A DNA stretch of 60,235 bases, filler included, from Sphacelaria rigidula (GCA_964200075.2; 5 parts of 5 records of this genome joined end to end with filler, not necessarily neighbours in it), one strand, 5' to 3'. Positions 1 to 48,271 are shown, counted from the first letter of the whole stretch. The notes: generated by a model from the sequence alone, not told the origin. Numbers and translations: made by a program.

Positions 1-1068
1 CGGCGAGCGGATCGTCACGGACCCGCTGGTGGTCTCGGTGCCCTCGCCGCTCAGGATCGTCACCGACCCGCCCGTGCCGGCCGTGGCCGCAGTGGACGCT
101 CCGGCCGTCACTTGCACCAGACCGCCCTGGCCCGTGTCGCCGGTGCCGACTGTGAAGCTGAGCAAGCCGCCCGAGCCGCCCAGGGCGGCCCCGCTTCCCA
201 CCATGATGTCTCCGCTGTCTCCCACCGTCGTGGACCCAGAGCTGAAAGTCATGGTTCCGCTGTTTCCGGACGTACCGGCGGCGGGAGACGTGATGGTGAC
301 CGTGCCGCTGTTGCCGCTCGTTACCGCTCCGCTTGTCACCGCCACAATCCCGCCTTTCGTGCTGCCACTGCCGGCCACCATCGTCAAGTCGCCGCCCGTG
401 ACCGCCGAGCTCAACCCCGCCATTATACTCACGTCGCCTCCCTCATCCGCCACACCGGCCCCGGCCGCTATGCTCACGGCCCCACCCACCGTCGCTCCCA
501 GTCCCGCCGTCACCGTCACCGACCCCCCGGACGCCGTCGTGCCCTCTCCCGCCACCACGTCCAACGCACCACCCGTAGACCCCACACCCGCCGCCATCGC
601 CACCTCGCCTCCGGTGCCTGTGCTTCCCGTCCCGGCCGCCAGCGACACGCCCCCGCCCGTCACGCCCGTACCGCCCGTCAACGTCAACGCGCCGCCCGTC
701 GCCAGGTCGCCCGTGCCCACCGTCACGCTCACGTCGCCGCCCGATCCGGACGTGGCCGCGCCGCTGCCGATCTGGACCATGCCAGTGTCACCGGAGCTGC
801 TGGTGCCCGAGCTGAACACCAACACGCCGCTCACGCCGTCCGTGCCGGCGTTCGGCGAGCGGATCGTCACGGACCCGCTGGTGGTCTCGGTGCCCTCGCC
901 GCTCAGGATCGTCACCGACCCGCCCGTGCCGGCCGTGGCCGCAGTGGACGCTCCGGCCGTCACCTGCACCAGACCGCCCTGGCCCGTGTCGCCGGTGCCG
1001 ACTGTCAAGCTGAGCAAGCCGCCCGAGCCACCAAGGGCGGCCCCGCTTCCGATCATGATGTCTCCGCT
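1..1068. repeat. 852-bp (284-codon) intragenic tandem duplication, GC-rich
   Basis: Positions 1-~216 recur nearly identically at 853-~1068 (cggcgagcggatcgtcacggacccgctggtggtctcggtgccctcgccgctcagg...). Confidence 0.9.
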
Positions 1069-4000
1069 ATCACCTGCGCTAGCTGTTCCCGAACTGAAGG
1101 TCATGATCCCGCTCGTTCCGCTCAACCCGGCGTTCATGGATCGAATGATGACCTCTCCCGAACTTGTGGCGGTTCCTTCTCCACTGGCAATATAGACAAC
1201 ACCACCTGTTCCTGCGGTACTTTCGCCGGCAAAAAGTTGTAGTCGACCGCCTGATCCGCTATCTCCACTGCCGACGGTGACACTAACCATCCCTCCGCGG
1301 CCACTAGTGCTGTCACCTGACCCAATCAGAACCTCTCCACTGTTACCGAAGCTGCTTGTTCCCGAGCTAAATGACAACTGCCCGCTGATCCCAGAATCTC
1401 CTGCGTTCGCTGACTGAACTATAACAGATCCACTACTCGTTGCGTGACCCTCACCACTAAAGATGATAACATCTCCACCGGTCATCACAGTACTGCTTCC
1501 AGCGTACACCTCTACGACACCACCAGATCCGCTGCTACCCTCGCCTACGATAAGGCTGATCTTGCCGCCACGTCCCCCCGCACTCGACCCCGTCCCAACA
1601 AGGATGGCACCACTGTTTCCGTCGCTACTTGTTCCAGAGCTAAACTCGAGAAGGCCACTAACTCCACTAGCACCGGCGTTTGAAGTTTGAACCAATACAG
1701 ACCCGCTCGATGTGTACTGACTGTAGCCGGTGGTAATAGAAATATCGCCTCCAGTCAGACCAGTGGTGGTTTTTGTGTCCCCGGCGTGGAGAACAACATC
1801 ACCGCCCGCTCCACTCGTACCTGTCCCTACTGTTAGTTCAATATCTCCTCCTCGTCCACCGGTGGCTTTTCCGGTCACGATTGTGACCGTACCGGTGTTG
1901 CCGTTGCTGCTGGTGCCGGTGCTGAACGTCATGATTCCGCTCACGCCGGCCGCGCCTGCGTTTGATGATCTTATGTGCACCGCCCCACTTGTGCTTGCCG
2001 ACGAGTACCCAGACTGGATCAAGATATCGCCACCTGTGACATCTGCGCTTGAGCCTGCTAAAATATTCACTGAACCACCGGCCTCTGATTCAGAAAGCCC
2101 CACTTCGATGTTCACGCTTCCGCTCTGACCTCCGATGGACGTGCCCGTTTGGATAAGGATCTCTCCTGAACTACCGGAGCTTGATGTGCCTGTGGTGAAA
2201 AGAAGCATGCCGCTGCGCCCATTGTGGCCCGCATTAACGGTCCGAACGACAACGTCACCGCTTGTTGTTGCAGAACCAACGCCACTTTCGATTGTTATCT
2301 CTCCACCCGTTGCAGCTGTGCTCTCCCCTGCCCGTACCAGGATCTGTCCGCCTGCGCCACTCCCACCACTGCCGATGATAAGGCTTATCATTCCCCCACG
2401 CCCATCGTTTGCACTGCCAGATTCAATATTGATCGCTCCACTGTTTCCGTCGGTGCTTTCACCAGATCCAAAGCTGAGGCTACCGCTCGCTCCTTCGCGG
2501 CCTGCGTCCGCAGTTTGAACTATGATATTTCCACTCGATGTCTCGACTCCGTGCCCGCTGAAGATGAGGACCGACCCTCCACTTGCAGCGGCGCCCTCAC
2601 CCCCTTCGACGAACACATCACCACCGGCGCCAGCTATGGGGTTCGTGCCCTTACCTGCAGATACGAGCACGGACCCCCCAGTCCGCTCCAGGTCCGACGT
2701 CGCACCTGCAAGCATATGGATGCCGCCACCATCACCGCTTGCCCCGGAACCGACCGCAAGACTTATAGTACCCCCGCGACCTGATGTAGCGTTGGAGGTG
2801 CTTATCAACACCTCTCCGGTATCTCCTCGACTTGAGGTTCCCGTTGTCAGAGATATGAATCCACTGGCTCCGACCAAACCGGAGTTTGCCGTTTGAATCA
2901 GGACTGAACCGCTGCTGCTCCACTCACTGCTCCCGCTCTCCAGTGCAATACTGCCGCCGGTGAACATGTAGGTATCACCTGCATGCAGCGACAACTGTCC
3001 TCCTGGTCCACTGTCACCGATGCCAACGGAAATGTTTATTGCCCCACCGCTTCCGCCCTTTGCTTGACCAGTCACAATGTTAATTGATCCGGAACTTCCC
3101 GACCCAGATTCACCAGAACGCAAAGAAAGGGGTCCGCTCGCACCGGCCGCACCGCCATTGAGAGTTCGAAGCACGACAGCTCCACTGGTGGTGCCGACTC
3201 CTTCCCCACTCAATACCGTTACGGAACCTCCGGTACCACCAACGGCGATGCCCGCTGTCACGGTAACGTTGCCTCCACCGCCTTTTTCTCTGCTGGTTCC
3301 AGCTCCGGCCCTTATTGAGATTGACCCTCCGTCGCTTCGATCAGCGCTTGTGTTTCCGGCCTTCAACGTGAGTGAGCCTCCAAATCCACTTGCGCTGCTC
3401 CCCACGGCCAGCGCAATGCTCCCGCTTGAACCAAGAGTAGCGTCTCCAGTGGCCAGATCAATAGCTCCAGTGTTGCCTGATTGGCTGGAACCTGTGCGAA
3501 TATCTGCATCCCCACTGGATCCATGGAGGTTCTGTGCATCCGCTGTCCATAAAGCCACACGACCACTACTTTTTCCGTTTAGCAAGTCACTGCCGCTCCC
3601 AGAAGAGAGAGTTATACTACCACCATCACCTCCTTGCGAGGAACCTGCTGAGATCTCCACGTTGCCACCGGCCCCAACTCTACCTGTGCTGTCTCCAGCC
3701 CTGAAGACCAGTGCCCCCCCTGTCCCTGACGCATCGCCGCCACCCGCAGGGAATGCATTCCCCGCAGTGATTTCAATAGAACCTGCTGCTTCGTTCGGAT
3801 TTCGCTGCTTGCCAGCTGACAAACTCATGTCTAGGGGGGACATAGTCAAGACCGCAGAGCCTATCTCTTCGTCTCCTACACGAAGGTGAATATTACCAGC
3901 CTCCCCGCCGTGCTCCGATCGGCCGGTCGCGAGAGTGATCGACCCGCTGTCACCGTACGACGCCGTACCAGTCGAAATACTGATAGCACCACTGGCACCC

Positions 4001-7000
4001 ACAGGATCAGCGTTGGCGTAGAACCCCCCAGCTTCCGTCGCGATCGCGATATCGCCGCTTCGCTCCCCAGAGTTCGGCCCAAACCCGAAGTGCTTGTGCT
4101 GCGACTGTAGCGCAGAGATCAAGTCAAGTGTGAGCCCGGCCTTGTCCACTTGCATGAAGTCGTTTATCTTGAAGTTCTTGTCCGGTAGTTCGAACTCCGA
4201 AATAGTTTCCACGTGCTCCGGAAATACCTCCGCAAGCTGCTGTGCGATCACGCCACGAACACGTGGGTTGCCGTCCAGGTTGCGGACTTGGCGCCATTCT
4301 TCCGTGTACGTGTACTCCATCATTTCGACTGCCATGAACCGTTGCAGAATGTCATTACCGTCTACACTGACGACGTCTTGCTTTATACGCTCGTCGGAGG
4401 AGTACTGCACAGTTGTAACCTGCATTGGGATGCTTGAAATCACACGGGGCTCGCCCTCTTCAAACTCCTGGAGACGGAAATCGTATGAGGTCGGGTCATC
4501 CGCCTGGCTACTCGGCGGATGACTAACACTGAAGCCAATGACATTGTTCGTCGTCGTTTCGCCGGCCGGTACCGCAAGATAGATTCCTCCTTCAATGCCA
4601 CTTGTGACTCTTACGTTACTATCCGACGTCATTACGCGTGTTTCCTTCAAGGATGATTGAATCTCGACCGTACCGTTGGTGCTTTCGCCGGTCCCAGGCC
4701 TGACGACCACACGACCGCCGATACCATCAGCAGCTGAACCTGCCGAAACTGTAACGTTCCCACCAGCTTCCTGCTTGTTCAACCCACGACGATCCCGTGC
4801 TGATCCACCTACTGAATTACCGCCAAAAATGTCCACCCCTCCACCCGAACCCGACGTACCTCGCCCAGCCTTGATTGCGACAGCGCCACCAGCACCGCTG
4901 ACACCATGCCTTTCGTCCCCCGCACCGATGCCAGCGGCGATGGTAACCTTACCACCCTTTCCGTGAGATGCATGGCCTGCCTGAAGTCCAATTTCTCCAC
5001 CGGCAGTTCGAAACCCGTCGGTATCACCGGCGGTGATATTGATGTGGCCACCGTCTGCGACTCCCGACGCACCTACGTGTGCATCTATGCTGCCTCCGCT
5101 CCGTGCCTTACTTGTAAGCAGCAAAAGAGATCCCGCTGCACCACCGACGGATTCACCAGTTTCGAGACGGATGCCACCGCTTCGCCCAGTCGTACCGCTG
5201 TTCGCCGTGCGAAGGTGCACATCGCCACTGGACCCGTGCCAACTTTGTCCTGACTGAACAAATACCGAGCCGCCCATGGTACCGTGCATACTCTCAGCGA
5301 CACCAGCAGTGAAGTTAATGTTTCCTCCTTGTCCTGCTGTGCCAGCGCCAACTGCGATACTGACGCTTCCGCCGGAGCCAGAGTATGATCGTCCCGTACT
5401 CAACTTGAGCTCCCCTGACTCCCCGCGGGTAGCATTCCCAGTGGATACTGTAATAGAGCCGCTTGCGCCCGCTCGACCTGCTCCTCGTGTAAGGATGTGC
5501 ATTGCGCCACTTGTTGATTCCTGACTCGTCCCTGTTGCAATCAAAACAGACCCACCCCTGCCTCTGACTGCGCCTCCCCCTCGGGCAACCACCCCTCCAC
5601 CTGAATCCGCCGAGTGCCCACCTCCAGCCTCGCCGCCTTCGATACTGATTCCTCCTCCTCGCCCGCCACCAGTAGAATGTCGATTGGTTCCTGCTCCAGC
5701 AGCTAACCTCAAATAGCCACCACTACCCAGGCGCGCATTCGACTCACCTGCAGTCACGTTTACCGCCCCACCCTGGAGCGCGGATCCTCGGCCTACCGTG
5801 ATGTTCACAGCACCTCCACTACCCCCAGCAGTTGCCGCACCGGTGCCTATAAATAGAGACCCAGAATCACCGGCAGCCGACAATCCCGTGGACAGTGCCA
5901 GGTCGCCACTAACGCCACTTGGTCCAGAGTCTGCCGTGAGGATTGTGACTTGCCCACTGGAAGAGATTTCACCAGCGCCCGATTGAAAGAGTAGGGAGCC
6001 TCCACTGGCAGCCGCAGCTGAGCCTGCGGTAATTTCGATGCTGCCGCCTTGATCGTTTCTCGAGTCCGAACCACTGGCTCGTCCGGCATCCAAAAAGATA
6101 GAGCCACCATCTCCTCCACCACCTTGGCTACTACCTCTCGCTGAACTTAGCCCATCTCCAGCCGCCATCAGAACGTCCCCCCCTCGGCGTCCTCTGGCAG
6201 TAGAGTCGCCGGCTCGCATCATGATAGCGCCCCCGTTGTGATCTGTACCAGCTCCAACAAAAAGCTCAATGTTTCCTCCAGACCCGCCCTGGGCAGCGCC
6301 TGTGGCGATGCCTATATCACCAGAAGAACCATCGGGACTGAGGCCGGTAGAAAACGCGAGTCGCCCGCTATCTCCATGGCGCCCAGCGCTTGCAGTTTTC
6401 AGGAGCAGAGCGCCACTGGTCGACCCATAGGAGTACCCAGTTCGAATAGAAACCTCACCGCCTGTGTTCCCATACGTATCTCCGGCAATGAGGCTGATAT
6501 CACCCCCAACGCCAGAGTCCCCAGTTCCCACGTAAACCTGAAAACTACCTCCACGCCCCTTCCGGGAAGCACCGGTCTGAAGGCTTAGTGTCCCCGAGTC
6601 ACCTCGACTAGAGGTTCCCGTGTAAAGGGAAATGTCGCCACTAGTGCCGGTCTCGCCAGCATTTGCGGTGGATACATGCACGACGCCGCTTGAAGTGTGT
6701 TCTCCATAGCCGCTCCGAAGTTGAAATGTCCCACCTCTGCCTTGGCGGGAAAATCCTCCGGCTATCTCAACGCCTCCGCCTTCGTCGCCCAGTGCACCTC
6801 CTTGTGCAGCTCCCCCAAATATCTGAACACGCCCACCGTTGCCCCCGTTGTAGCGATCCCGGCTGCTACCTTCACCGGCGGCAATGAGCACATCGCCGCC
6901 TTCCGCCTCCGGAGCCGTAGCTTCTCCCGCCGCCAGGATCACATCCCCTCCATCGCCAGTAGAACCAGATCCCACAGCAACAACGACATCGCCGCTAGCC

Positions 7001-10000
7001 CCGTCCTCGGCGTTTCCGGTAATCAACTGGACACTGCCACTGCTGCCCCGACTTGCAGTTCCTGTGGACAGAACTATTTCTCCGCTAACGCCAGCAACGC
7101 CCGCGTTGGGAGTACGGATGACAACCATTCCGCTGGAAGTGTAACTGCTGTATCCGCTCATGACTGTCACATAACCCCCGGAGGCCTTGTCAAATGTGTT
7201 ACCTGCTGTAAGGCCCATATTTCCACCGGAGCCATTATTCCCATCACCCACGGAAACGTCAATGCTTCCACCGCTTCCGACCTCTGCATTTCCAGTTGAA
7301 AGAGAAATCGTGCCGCTTGAACCATAGCTGGTGGTGCCGCTTCGGATAGATATACCTCCGCTGAAGCCTTGAGTGCCAGCATTTCCGGTGTCAATTGCGA
7401 TGGACCCGCTGGTTGTCATTGTACTCAACCCTGATTTTATCAACACATCTCCACCGCTACCGGTGAAAGATCTTCCACCCTCCAATGTCACACGCCCTCC
7501 GTCGTCAGCAGTGCCCTGGCCTTTAGCCACTCCGCCGACGACGCTCACTTCGCCCCCGTTGCCACCGTCAATCTGATGAGGACTCGCGCCTTCTCCACCT
7601 CCTATCAGCACACGGCCGCCCGATCCGCCAACCGAACTCGTTCTCCCAGCGGATACCTCTATGTCGCCTCCATTCCCGTAGTCACCCTCTCCAACAGCCA
7701 GGAGAATGGTGCCACCGGCACCAGCAGTAGCTGCTCCGGTGCGGATAAAGACTGAGCCAGACGTGGTCGCAAGAGACTCGCCGGTGGAAATGGATACGTC
7801 GCCACTTACACCATCTGACCCGGAAGGCGACGTCGAGATCGCCACCGGACCACTTGATCCCGCGCTGCTGGCACCAGATTGGACGTTGATTCCACCCCCC
7901 CGGCCGGCTATGGAATCGCCGCCGACGATCTCCACGGTACCACCACGATCCAGTACTGACGTTCCCTTCGAGCCCCCACCCTGAATCATCACGTGGCCTC
8001 CATCTCCGCCATCGCCCTCATCTGCACTCGAACCCTTGCCAGCTGTGAGAAAGATGTTGCCTCCCCGGGCACCCACGGCCGCTGTGTCACCAGAGTAGAG
8101 ATAGAGATCGCCGCCATCGCCAGAACCGCCGGCTCCAACGATTATTCCCACGGGGCCCCCTGCGCCATCCACGGCATTCCCCGAGCCAAGTAGTACTGTT
8201 CCGGAATCTCCACTGCTGGATGTTCCGGTTGAGACAACGATAGATCCGCTTGCCGCAGCTCTTGCGGCATCTGTAGTTGTAATGCGCACGGCTCCACTTG
8301 TGAATAGATCGCTTGAACCGCTACGGAGTTCGACGTCACCGCCGATGCCTGCCATGCTCTTGCCGCCTACAACAGAAACTGTACCACCGACACCATCGAC
8401 AGCGGATCCCCCAGTAAGAACAACACTACCGCCGTTCCCAATGTCGCCTCCTTCCAGTGTCCCTGCGGCGCTTCCTCCGCTAATAGACACTGCTCCACCG
8501 ACGCCGCCATCTGTGCTAAGTCCATTACCGGCACCAAGCATGACAGCGCCGCCAACACCGTTGACGGCGCTTGTGTTTCCGGCAAAAAACTCGATGTCTC
8601 CGCCGGCGCCGACAATATCGGCTCCACCAATGCTAAACACGATGTCTCCTGCATCGCCATCCGTCGATGATCCGGTCTGGAACTCAATATCGCCGGCACT
8701 ACCGTTAATAGCCTGCCCAGTGCTCAGGACTATTGACCCGGAGACACCGCTTGGGCCTGCATCCACTGTCTGAATGACAACGTCGCCGCTAGAGCTTAAG
8801 GTTCCGGCACCGCTGGAGAGAAGAACGCCCCCCCCGGTTTGATGGCTGCTATCGCCGGCAGTGATGATCACCCACCCTCCCACGCCAGAGTCTCCACTTC
8901 CAACGGACACTCGAACATCTCCACCACCGCCACCCGTTGCATCCCCGGACCGGAGCAGGATATCTCCTGTGCTTCCCGCTGATGATGTTCCTGTCAGCAA
9001 ATTTATCATACCACTGACACCTGATGTGCCGGCATTTGCGGTAGCGACAGTGGCTCCCCCGCTTGAAGAGAGTCTACCTACTCCAGTAGAAAGTAGTAGA
9101 GCACCGCCTGTACCCGCTGCAGCGGGGCCACCCGTCAACATAATCACGCCTCCTATGTTACTTGCGCTATTTCCGAGCGCTTCACCCCCCGAAATTTCTA
9201 CCGTTCCGCCCAATCCACCTGCGTACGAGGTAGCATCCGTTCCTGCACCCGCTGTGATGTGCACATTTCCCCCATGTGCACTGGGTGCTATCGAGCTTCC
9301 CGCCAATAGGTCGATGGAGCCCCCCTCGCCGCTGTCTCCAGACCCCACAGCGAGCGTGATTTGGCCAGCTTTACCGCCATCAGCGGAGCTGGTGATGAGT
9401 GAAATCGAGCCAGAGTCAGCAGCACTAGAAGAGCCTGTCTTCAACACCATGTCACCACTGTAACCCGCCCTCCCGCTGTTGGCAGTTTGCAGATACAGTC
9501 CGCCGCTGGAACCATCTACGGCGTATCCAGAGTTCACCCGAACACTTCCGCCGCGAGAACCGATCTCGGTTGCTTCGCCAGCCGCAAGGGTAATGTCGGA
9601 ACCTTCTCCAACACCTGTTACACCGACGATCAAACTCACCAACCCTGCTTGTCCGTTCGCTGCGTCACCGGTGCCGAGAAGTAGCGTCCCCGTGCTGTTT
9701 GTCAGAGAATCACCCGAGAAAACAGTGACATCACCGCTCGCCGCTTCATCGCTACCAGCGCCTGATCGGATCTGAACATGCCCTGAGGAACGTCCGGCAC
9801 TCGACCCACTCGATAGAAATATCCCGCCTCCAACTCCGCGCTCACTGCCGCCCCCTGTAAGGTTGACACCACCACCTTCGCCCTCCACTGAGGTACCACC
9901 CGTCATGCGTACGCTGCCACCGCCACCTATGTCTCCACCAAAGGCCTCAAGACCCGTACCGGATCCTCCAACGATCGAGACATTTCCACCGCTTCCTCCG

Positions 10001-10232
10001 AGAGGGTTGGTTCCGTCCCCGGCAAACACAAAAATTTCGCCGCCCGCCTCATTTGCGTTATCAGAATTTCCAGATAGCATGCTGGCGTCACCACCCGAGA
10101 GTAGTCGGAATGACGTTTGATTGAGCAAAAGAGAAAAACTTGCTCCGGTCTCTGTCACTCCGGAAGCGGACAACTCACCTCCACCAAACCGGGGATCGGC
10201 TTCTACGATGAGGTTTCCAACGACTCGGTTTT
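1..10232 (-). CDS. Giant exon (~3,410 codons, runs off the contig end): Gly/Ser/Thr/Ala-rich ~15-aa GGxVxIxxG repeats with an internal S74 domain
   Basis: Acceptor AG is at 10233-10234. Codons occupy positions 3k-2..3k on the + numbering. Spot translations near 10200, 4700-3700 and 1200-1 are all open and in the same frame. Confidence 0.88.
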
Positions 10233-11804
10233 CTAGAGCAACAAGTGACGCACGCGACGACGACGACAACCAGTAGTTACATCATTTTGAAGAAAAACTA
10301 CTTGTAGACGGTGGATAGGCGCTTACAAATTGGCGGTACAATGTATTGGATCGCCACGTCGACAGGTGAAGCTCTAGGTACTCGAGAGGAACAAACACAG
10401 TCGAGGACAAAGAGTAAACACAGCTGAAAGAAGAAAAGAAGCCATGGAAAGAGTTCAAACACGCGAAGGACACGACTTCATAACGACACGCACGTAGCTA
10501 AAGATATGCAGCTTGTCGAAGAGTGTAGTTTGATCCTACCTGGACCCGAGAAGCCCATAAGACAACAGACAAGACGCTACCATACGAGGGTGGCGTCACT
10601 AGGGTCCAACCGATAACTTCTGCAATCTCAAACAGTCGACATTTGATAAGGCAGCCGATCCATTGATACCGAAGCTGTGATGTCTCGAAAAGTCTTCTTC
10701 AACAACCGTGGCGCACAACACATTTTATTCGTCACCATAACGCTGACTTTCTCGACCGACACGCTTGCTTCGAGATCATAGATGAGATGGAGTTGAGGTA
10801 TACGAAATCCCAAGAGAATATGAGCTCTCACCTCCGACAAAAGACGTGGGACAGGGAAGGTCGAACACGGTTCCGCGGCAGTCTATGCTGAAAATCTCCG
10901 AGACTGTCATGCACGTGCTCTCGGACGCGCACCACGCACAATCTTCATCTTCTGCGCAGGTTGAACATTCGGGGTACTCACTGCACCGTGGGGGTCCTGA
11001 AAGCCATGCGTGTGAAACAAATCCGATACGCATGTACAAAAAGGAATCCGGATGAGGAGGCGTGAGAAGGTGAGATACGACGCAACGAGATTGTCAGGGA
11101 GACGTTCAGCCGTTTCGTATAAGGAAATTCTGTTTGCGGTAAAGGGGGGCATTGATGGTCACAGCTAGTAGGTGGTGCGTGCTTGCTTGGATGCGGGCAA
11201 CGCGACGGCAGTGGAACTGGTGACTGGGTGGGGGTTTGGTGGGCTGAAAGTGTGTGGGAATCTGTGCCTTATTTTTCCACAAGATGTGTATCCCACCAAC
11301 ATGGATGACCACGAACGGCAATCACCGAATCGGGAGCGGGTGGGGGGGAGAAGCAAGCATCAAATGCACCGGTAACATTGAACGAGCTATGTCCGTTCGT
11401 GCTAATCTGGACTTTTGAAAACTGCACGTACGTGCAGTTGTTGACAACATTTGTCGTCCCCGGATGTCCCTCGAGGACTTGCTACTCTAGATATTTGTTT
11501 ATGTTCACCATGCACACTCCACAACTTAAATACATTCGTCGTAGTAGCAGCGCCTTGGCTGTGGCGTCCGTGATGCTGTTTATGCACTTGTGTAAGTCAT
11601 GCATAACCTCCCGCCATGATTATGTGGTAATAGTGAAAGAATGTTAAAATCGCACCTGGGCACACGTCAGCTGCGGTAATCCAGGTTGGGCATGGCGACC
11701 CATCCGATGGCCCAAGCGAGCTACCGTCAGTGCATTGTAGCGTGGACAAACAGTAACCACACCCTTCTACTCCGATGCAGCTGGTACAGTTCGCCACATC
11801 AGTC
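1..11804 (-). CDS. Giant (>3,500 aa, truncated at both ends) PSI-domain / Gly-rich repeat / Peptidase S74 (ICA) fibre-like protein; exons 11656-11804, 10832-10996, <1-10232
   Basis: Manual splicing: ttgcag|G ACT GAT GTG..TGC CCA G|gtgcga; tttcag|GA CCC CCA..GTC GGA G|gtgaga; ctctag|AA AAC CGA GTC. Phases match and give ..ADVCPGPPRCSEY..PTSFVGENRVVGNLIVEADPRFGGG... All Pro-rich + strand shadow ORFs from 29 to 10120 share one frame, and the track lists no minus ORF in the matching frame, consistent with no stop over 10.2 kb. Translated stretches are repeats such as GTGGSVTILSGEGTETTSGSVTIRSPNAGTDGVSGVLVFSSG. Confidence 0.9.
4090..4398 (-). other. Peptidase S74 / intramolecular chaperone autoprocessing (ICA) domain within the giant protein
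   Basis: Translation: SDERIKQDVVSVDGNDILQRFMAVEMMEYTYTEEWRQVRNLDGNPRVRGVIAQQLAEVFPEHVETISEFELPDKNFKINDFMQVDKAGLTLDLISALQSQH. It has the S-D-x-R-x-K dyad motif (Ser codon 4396-4398, Lys codon 4381-4383), a Y-x-Y motif, GVIAQ..FPE.V and a C-terminal amphipathic helix. Confidence 0.9.
10832..10996 (-). CDS. Exon encoding PSI (plexin-repeat) domain 2 of the giant protein
   Basis: GPPRCSEYPECSTCAEDEDCAWCASESTCMTVSEIFSIDCRGTVFDLPCP has the C..CxxC..CxWC..C PSI pattern. The exon is 165 bp, symmetrical phase 1-1, with canonical splice sites. Confidence 0.85.
11656..11804 (-). CDS. Exon encoding PSI (plexin-repeat) domain 1 of the giant protein
   Basis: TDVANCTSCIGVEGCGYCLSTLQCTDGSSLGPSDGSPCPTWITAADVCP has the CxxC..CGYC..C..GP..C..W..CP pattern and canonical AG/GT boundaries. 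Confidence 0.85.
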
Positions 11805-11897
11805 CTGCAACGGCAGCGAAGAAAGCGTCATCGCGGACGGCAGGTATTAAGTCCGAGGTTTGCTCCAAACGCTAGTTATCTCAAGCAACTGGATTCT

Positions 11898-11972
11898 GAG
11901 CAATGCTACGGTAGGGGTGCACTTTTTCCGCGAAATTTTGTCTGGTTCAGAGGCTCCTAACGATTCTAGACG
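11898..11972. mobile_element. Truncated copy of the GAG-terminus MITE family, in an intron of the giant gene
   Basis: Starts GAGCAATGCTACGGTAGGGGTGCAC, the same TIR as the full copies; cut by the contig end. Confidence 0.8.
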
Positions 11973-12072
11973 NNNNNNNNNNNNNNNNNNNNNNNNNNNN
12001 NNNNNNNNNNNNNNNNTTAATTAATTAANNNNNNNNNNNNNNNNNNNNNNNNNNNNNNNNNNNNNNNNNNNN
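11973..12072. other. Artificial contig spacer (N44-TTAATTAATTAA-N44)
   Basis: 100-nt spacer carrying a six-frame-stop linker; the same design occurs at four places. Confidence 0.97.
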
Positions 12073-48171: not shown

Positions 48172-48271
48172 NNNNNNNNNNNNNNNNNNNNNNNNNNNNN
48201 NNNNNNNNNNNNNNNTTAATTAATTAANNNNNNNNNNNNNNNNNNNNNNNNNNNNNNNNNNNNNNNNNNNN
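48172..48271. other. Artificial contig spacer
   Basis: 100-nt N/TTAATTAATTAA/N linker. Confidence 0.97.

Follow-up and report, generated by a model that had tools for sequence, protein, structure and literature searches.

Why does a giant Gly/Ser-rich repeat protein of the brown alga Sphacelaria rigidula carry, in its interior rather than at its end, an ICA (Peptidase_S74) domain resembling that of MYRF? The window, the whole 60,235-nucleotide stretch of DNA that was analysed, consists of five separate contigs divided by N spacers with a short palindromic linker (11973-12072, 24040-24139, 36107-36206, and 48172-48271). The locus itself is confined to window positions 1-11972, which are contig C4280 of the 244-Mb assembly. 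Elsewhere in the window (13428-37176), five ORFs of at least 150 aa, from the 20 listed, gave no Pfam match at an E value of 0.01.

A single stop-free frame of 3,427 codons runs along the minus strand from 10281 to 1, where it leaves the contig. All motifs quoted in an earlier note on this DNA were located in that frame, namely VQYS (4410-4399), SDERIK (4398-4381), GVIAQQLAEVFPEHV (4254-4210), INDFMQVDK (4167-4141), and LDLISALQ (4128-4105), and the linked motif SD.R.K ... G[VIL][IV]AQ[EQ] occurs once across the six frames of the window. Pfam, an AF2 model, and fold searches identify an ICA domain at 4090-4398 (minus strand, aa 1962-2064), the last part of which is a short helix (4143-4090). 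PF13884 matched aa 1962-2024 with 43.8 bits (cut-off, 22; E value, 3.1e-11) as the only Pfam domain of the 3,427-aa frame, and a PDB sequence search with a 153-aa segment returned MYRF (7dc3) as its sole match (E value, 1.4e-6). The dyad is intact. The catalytic Ser (aa 1962; 4396-4398) opens the domain and aligns to the mutated Ser of 7dc3, and the catalytic Lys (aa 1967; 4381-4383) stands at i+5. The cut is predicted directly before the Ser, in line with the ICA cleavage mechanism given in the available text of PMC8326128 and PMC3828593. The frame continues for at least 1,360 residues past the domain, so that this ICA does not occupy the C-terminal position of phage-type ICAs. The earlier description of an intact, internal, MYRF-like ICA with Ser and Lys five residues apart and a predicted cut site was thus borne out.

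Structural modelling pointed the same way. With 95 sequences, AF2 gave a model at pLDDT 80, for which Foldseek retrieved 7dc3 (E value, 5e-8; rmsd, 2.1) and endoNF 3gw6 (E value, 4.6e-4); the top four entries in the fold match were 7dc3, 3gw6, 3gud, and 4uw8. VIA assigned 7dc3 a Z of 10.2 (rmsd, 4.7; 140 aligned residues, stalk included) and the phage ICAs 5.9 to 6.0. A three-copy model scored 0.89 against 0.00 for the best of three controls, with at least 96% contact agreement between runs and a pLDDT of 81, although it may be a memory of 7dc3. Of the solved pairs, 21 of 30 attained the trimer mark, compared with 0 of 23 single chains (17 of 29 and 0 of 30, respectively, for eukaryotes); among eukaryotic complexes without an older solved relative, one of seven did so. 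In the modelled trimer, Lys1967 of one chain touches Tyr1990 and Tyr1992 of the next, as described for MYRF in the accessible part of PMC8326128, and the downstream repeats contact neighbouring chains at offsets of 15 to 16, as would be expected of a triple beta-helix in which each repeat supplies one strand. The final helix is confined to aa 2047-2064 (model residues 198-215), about 18 residues. A MYRF-like fold and trimer are therefore what the models predict for the domain. For the repeats alone, a single-sequence AF2 monomer (pLDDT, 43) was too poor for a fold search, a PDB sequence search gave one low-complexity match only, and an Atlas search scored under the recognition mark.

The remaining gene anatomy is consistent with a fibre. 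Exon A (11656-11804, minus strand), bounded by a TGCAG acceptor and a GT donor and fitting exon B in phase, encodes a PSI-like cysteine domain; its Cys spacing was judged by eye, and alone it gave no Pfam match at an E value of 0.1. Exon B (10832-10996, minus strand; AG/GT ends in phase) encodes a PSI domain matching PF01437 (27.2 bits; cut-off, 23.1; E value, 4.9e-6). Both splice in phase into a giant exon starting at 10232, a start placed by eye against a metagenome orthologue, L009. This supports the PSI-tipped N-terminal fibre that had been proposed for the locus, and its predicted length of over 2,000 aa agrees with the 2,049 codons counted from exon A to the catalytic Ser. Because PSI domains are of the disulphide type, the product is probably secreted; no signal peptide is seen because at least one earlier exon, with the start codon and presumably a signal peptide, falls outside the contig. 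The contig end itself (11898-11972), within the intron before exon A, is taken up by an element repeated at very high copy number. The giant exon opens with about 1,850 aa of Cys-free, Gly/Ser-rich repeats (4672-10232, minus strand), their period of 15 residues given by composition and an autocorrelation peak. A beta-rich stalk (4399-4671, minus strand) follows and ends in the P1 Ser (4399-4401); the model aligns to 7dc3 from model residue 65 (aa 1914), and pLDDT in the stalk is mostly 80 to 90. Beyond the ICA the period of 15 resumes (1133-4089, minus strand), as judged from composition and the interchain contacts of the trimer model. Gly/Ser/Thr-rich, Cys-free repeats thus flank the domain on both sides, with a Ser plus Thr content of 22 to 30%.

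At the contig end, the frame enters the first copies of an 852-bp (284-aa) super-repeat (1-1132, minus strand) and runs off the contig. The same super-repeat fills three further contigs from end to end: C1975, as one frame of 4,987 aa; C11596, with 2,767 aa; and C11563, with 385 and 2,540 aa separated by one frame change near base 1,100 (L047:1050-1160), which is either an assembly error or a real break. Genome searches turned up a single ICA locus of this family, a single N-terminal start, and no more than four contigs bearing the repeat. In two protein searches and one DNA search of the genome, no contig led out of the super-repeat and no C-terminus appeared, and hmmsearch of the three repeat contigs found no ICA. 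A weak match in C10520 was judged to lie outside the super-repeat array. Because the frame of the window runs into super-repeats that fill three more contigs, the precursor probably comprises about 14,000 aa or more, gaps and C-terminus excluded, and the four contigs, although unbridged, would belong to one gene. The earlier figure of more than 1,460 aa for the C-terminal part agrees with the 1,466 residues within the window, but these end with the contig, and the real part is probably nearer 12,000 aa. Three more intron-split S74 genes occur in the genome: L003 (C18885), in which the dyad is intact and the C-terminus is a long coiled-coil-like tail; L004/L006 (C21923), whose dyad, also intact, comes after tail-fibre-like Thr-rich repeats; and L005 (C167). 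These look like ordinary C-terminal ICAs, unlike the ICA of the window.

The assembled locus holds one ICA, and the earlier note predicted a single cut. However, the actual gene probably carries two tandem copies of an 804-bp (268-codon) unit of stalk, ICA, and linker (3916-4719, minus strand). Run X1 has contigs that extend over introns, and the assembly may derive from it; in this run, the piece 3921-4594 had a depth of 113 compared with 64, 73, and 67 for its neighbours (1.7-fold), with no other letters, although the depth of read contigs is not a copy number. One X1 contig joins 4719 back to 3916, a distance of 804 bases, in phase and connecting aa 1855 and 2122. This evidence comes from one run at 90% likeness and one joining contig, the intervening letters are not known, and joints at lower likeness can be foreign. 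Relatives show the same arrangement. P0010 (Ectocarpus sp.) starts in post-ICA-like sequence and passes through a linker of about 40 aa into a pre-ICA segment and ICA, and P0005 (Hapterophycus) and P0009 (Scytosiphon) run from the ICA into the start of another unit; all three contain the junction seen in the window, with P0010 and P0005 agreeing on roughly where it falls. Among multi-ICA proteins, P0002 and P0003 have three ICAs each and P0004 has two. Two units at the locus, both with the dyad, are therefore very probable, and because the unit is probably a collapsed tandem duplicate, two cuts and three pieces would replace the single cut.

A first homologue search, restricted to long proteins, yielded one protein. 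A search with the 267-aa unit gave 305 cluster representatives at an E value of 0.001, of which the best 150 were taken. Named sources among the 21 homologues looked up were Hapterophycus, Scytosiphon, Ectocarpus, Tribonema, Phaeothamnion, two Phytophthora, and Aphanomyces; the Phytophthora infestans relative is PITG_01491 (P0013). The metagenome locus L009 has the same layout: its single, intron-split ICA is preceded by at least 2,698 aa and followed by at least 1,887 aa. The family is widespread in brown algae and oomycetes, yet it stays hidden: short-read assemblies break or collapse the gene, and databases hold fragments only. One member, P0111 (RYE85057.1), is labelled as a Methanosarcinales MAG and sits on a 3.5-kb contig, probably a misbinned eukaryotic one.

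The earlier note had made the predicted cleavage depend on conservation of the dyad in relatives. The matches listed contained 159 domain matches, the window included, of which 122 cover both catalytic sites and 37 do not. Both Ser and Lys are kept in 96 of these 122 (one in a doubtful register), while 12 have Lys only, 14 have neither, and none has Ser only; Ala stands in place of Ser in 20 of the 26 Ser-less domains. Lys is lost only where Ser is lost (14/26 versus 0/96 of the listed domains). A Fisher test of this coupling (p 1e-11) was set aside, as it ignores kinship, in favour of a tree-based test, after which the coupling was not significant (three starred independent pairs; median p, 1). 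On a tree of 98 of 100 family rows (two dropped for a gap or register), Ser changes about 10 times and Lys three times, always within Ser-less rows. In P0002, P0003, and P0004 the dyad is intact in the first unit, and the last unit always lacks the Ser. Other cutting-site residues are widely kept among the listed domains, with Tyr1990 in 118/137, Tyr1992 in 125/135, Arg1965 in 119/124, Gln2014 in 126/136, and Phe2042 in 121/129, as mapped by hand to MYRF from the available text of PMC8326128. P1 is Pro in 50 of the 122 listed domains, and Ser at the window locus.

The reading that we favour, and which we regard on balance as probable, is an ICA-seeded triple beta-helix fibre cut before the Ser by each intact unit. 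One nuclear brown-algal gene would encode a precursor that is secreted and has a length of about 14,000 aa or more. In order, it would consist of two PSI domains, a stretch of 15-residue repeats of about 1,850 aa, a tandem pair of stalk-ICA units, and about 12,000 aa of repeats. Three chains would meet at the ICAs, where a triple beta-helix would be seeded and zip outwards both ways, one strand per repeat, to a total of about 0.45 µm at a rise of 4.8 Å per repeat. Once trimeric, Lys1967 would activate Ser1962, and the bond before the Ser would be cut in each unit, yielding three products: a front fibre tipped by the PSI domains and at least 2,050 aa long (about 60 nm), a small middle piece (about 300 aa), and a rear fibre that is capped by an ICA and about 12,000 aa long (about 380 nm). 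At the 9.6 Å per repeat of TLP-12, the fibre lengths would be twice these. The downstream beta-helix would have to replace the far half of the coiled coil of MYRF. The product would most likely be an O-glycosylated extracellular fibril. With a seed inside the chain, a 14,000-residue trimer could begin folding long before the end of its synthesis, and natural Ser-to-Ala dead ICA copies may set the number of pieces.

Three alternatives concern the gene itself. The repeat-only contigs could be one or more separate genes and the precursor much shorter than 14,000 aa, given that none of C1975, C11563, and C11596 is linked to the window by a bridging contig and that the sole exact end overlap, 95 bases between C1975 and C11563, is of a type that recurs inside the array. 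Yet the super-repeat starts within the frame of the window, all three contigs are wholly repeat, and no second start or second ICA of this family was found in the genome, and we consider separate genes improbable. Similarly, the locus could hold one ICA and give a two-piece product, with a stray copy or a different organism accounting for the surplus depth and for the joint. The single copy in the assembly, the single ICA of L009, and the noted limits of contig depth and low-likeness joints fit that account, but the piece breaks, the 1.7-fold depth, and the in-phase 804-base back-joint agree with one another, and three named brown-algal proteins pass from post-ICA sequence into another unit; a single ICA thus appears a poor prospect. 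An endogenous viral fibre gene would be in keeping with the ICA-bearing fibres common in viruses and with the integrated giant viruses present in brown algae. It is hardly credible here, in view of the spliceosomal-type introns and PSI exons, the named relatives across photosynthetic stramenopiles and oomycetes, and the lack of an encoded relative in any of 10 candidate stretches in viral_contigs.

The main structural doubt about cleavage arises because the helix ends at aa 2064, while mutation of L692 or R695, in the far half of the long coiled coil of MYRF, blocks cleavage according to the available text of PMC8326128. Since 26 of the 122 listed domains lack the Ser, which was replaced about 10 separate times on the tree, the fibre does not depend on being cut, and the ICAs might serve only as trimerisation and folding nodes, with the chain uncut or cut without its pieces parting. 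The Ser-less last units of P0002, P0003, and P0004 and the shortness of the final helix fit this as well. This account is nonetheless unlikely, as 96 of the 122 listed domains have both residues and none has Ser without Lys, the first unit is intact in all three multi-ICA proteins, and the trimer model reproduces the geometry of the site.

As for the role, the fibre could be the thin terminal (or lateral) filament of a tubular flagellar hair, the cut yielding a short and a long filament. Hairy-flagellate stages occur in the groups of all eight named eukaryotic sources, and the predicted fibre lengths are of the right order for hair filaments. The known MAS proteins localise to the shaft, as far as the available sources describe them, and terminal filaments exist in Fucus and Ochromonas (PMC2108286 and PMC2107633, accessible parts). 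Against this, PITG_01491 stays below 1 CPM in seven of seven P. infestans mycelium and tuber samples with no late rise, unlike MAS1, whose values in the same table climb from 2 to 30 CPM and from 1 to 47 CPM; that table covers mycelium and tuber samples and no zoospore stage, and PITG_01491 may be a paralogue. Nor did it appear in the available rows of flagellar-gene supplements, and the accessible P. parasitica zoospore membrane proteome tables carry no S74 label. Supplementary rows were drawn from the available parts of PMC5322657, PMC3471859, PMC5635513, and PMC5999078. A hair filament is for these reasons rated as possible but rather unlikely. PITG_01490, PITG_01491, and PITG_01492 co-vary across samples and may be pieces of one mis-annotated giant gene. 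PITG_01491 showed no change on mating. For the window locus, three presumed RNA runs yielded only short, scattered pieces, which count neither for nor against its expression. A broader proposal, which we hold to be decidedly doubtful, is that stramenopiles share one giant precursor, ICA-seeded in the secretory pathway and cut into a short PSI-tipped and a long filament that form the terminal filaments of the flagellar hair, with lengths set by repeat number and piece count by the tandem ICAs that keep their Ser. The gene is a concrete candidate for thin filaments on stramenopile cells that are so far without an identified protein.

The closest known counterpart by sequence and fold is MYRF/MrfA. 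It shares the internal ICA, the Ser-x4-Lys dyad, the upstream beta stalk, the Tyr pair, and the I.xF..V.K segment (7dc3; available parts of PMC8326128, PMC3742443, and PMC3828593), and the MYRF cutting-hole residues, mapped by hand, are present in the window ICA as Tyr1990, Tyr1992, Ile2012, Gln2014, Phe2042, and Val2045. A family profile found 7dc3 at 2.2e-17 and the next ICA at 6.1e-5. MYRF differs in having an Ndt80 DNA-binding domain, which Pfam did not find in the algal frame, and a four-heptad coiled coil (PF13887), whereas the algal helix is about half that length and gave no PF13887 match. P1 is Pro in MYRF and Thr in endoNF, as given in the available text of PMC3828593, but Ser in the alga. 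The fibre repeats on both sides of the ICA and the probable tandem units set the alga apart from MYRF, and MYRF is cytosolic, whereas the algal protein is probably lumenal. In MYRF a transmembrane anchor follows the ICA; the algal C-terminus lies outside the assembled sequence. The phylogeny against MYRF, bacterial, and phage domains that the earlier note had called for used 33 of 134 rows and 115 columns (LG+G4; bootstrap not settled), with a further tree of 125 rows. It recovered the family as its own group (12/13 rows; support, 81/97) but PVC-bacterial and phage rows shared an open fork with MYRF, which was represented by one row only. The AU test gave p 0.174 for the family with MYRF and p 0.275 for MYRF with PVC. 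Because of that fork, "MYRF-type" is to be read as likeness rather than as shown descent. The C-terminal ICAs of Verrucomicrobiota and Planctomycetota (L010-L014 and L056-L063) form a tight clade and lie nearest MYRF by tree path, without support.

Tail-fibre ICAs of phages and bacteria (K1F endosialidase 3gw6, GA-1 gp12 3gud, and T5 L-fibre 4uw8; PF13884) have the dyad and fold in common with the algal domain, and their role as a folding aid for a triple beta-helix fibre is like the one proposed here. They are C-terminal and discarded, whereas the algal ICA is internal. Bacterial and phage matches were 27 to 40% identical with a C-terminal ICA; in 30 of 34 outgroup domains at most 79 residues follow the match, while at least 60 follow it in 66 of 100 family domains, many of which are fragments. 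The mastigoneme proteins MAS1-3/OCM are likewise stramenopile extracellular filament proteins with Cys-rich domains, but the available descriptions give them as EGF-like, about 64 kDa, shaft-located, and without ICA or Gly-rich fibre, unlike the algal protein, in whose sequenced parts Pfam found no EGF-like domain. Further background came from the available parts of PMC3742440, PMC13109109, 10.64898/2026.09.11.750887, and PMC12223298.

The nearest precedent in design is the TLP-12 glycofibril, which the accessible text of 10.1101/2025.09.30.679562 ties to candidate Amoebophrya proteins, such as A0A8J1ZHD7, that are about 20,000 aa long and carry their ICA at the C-terminus. Because these candidates came first, a structural eukaryotic ICA is not new. 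The earlier proposal of a structural rather than transcription-factor use is supported. No description of the internal, tandem, stramenopile form was found in the literature covered, from which subscription journals were mostly absent. According to the same text, both systems combine giant Gly/Ser-rich repeats with an ICA, a proposed triple beta-helix, and Ser/Thr residues that carry O-glycans in TLP-12 and may do so here. Compared by description, the Amoebophrya proteins have a GSxxS dodecapeptide, alveolate hosts, and a C-terminal ICA, whereas the algal protein has a period of 15, an internal and probably tandem ICA, and PSI domains in front. GSxxS occurs five times in 1,855 aa and 11 times in 1,357 aa of the alga, and not at all in 3,333 aa of C1975. 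The algal gene would thus represent a third use of the ICA, which phages discard at the chain end, which in MYRF frees a transcription factor, and which here would lie inside a giant fibre.
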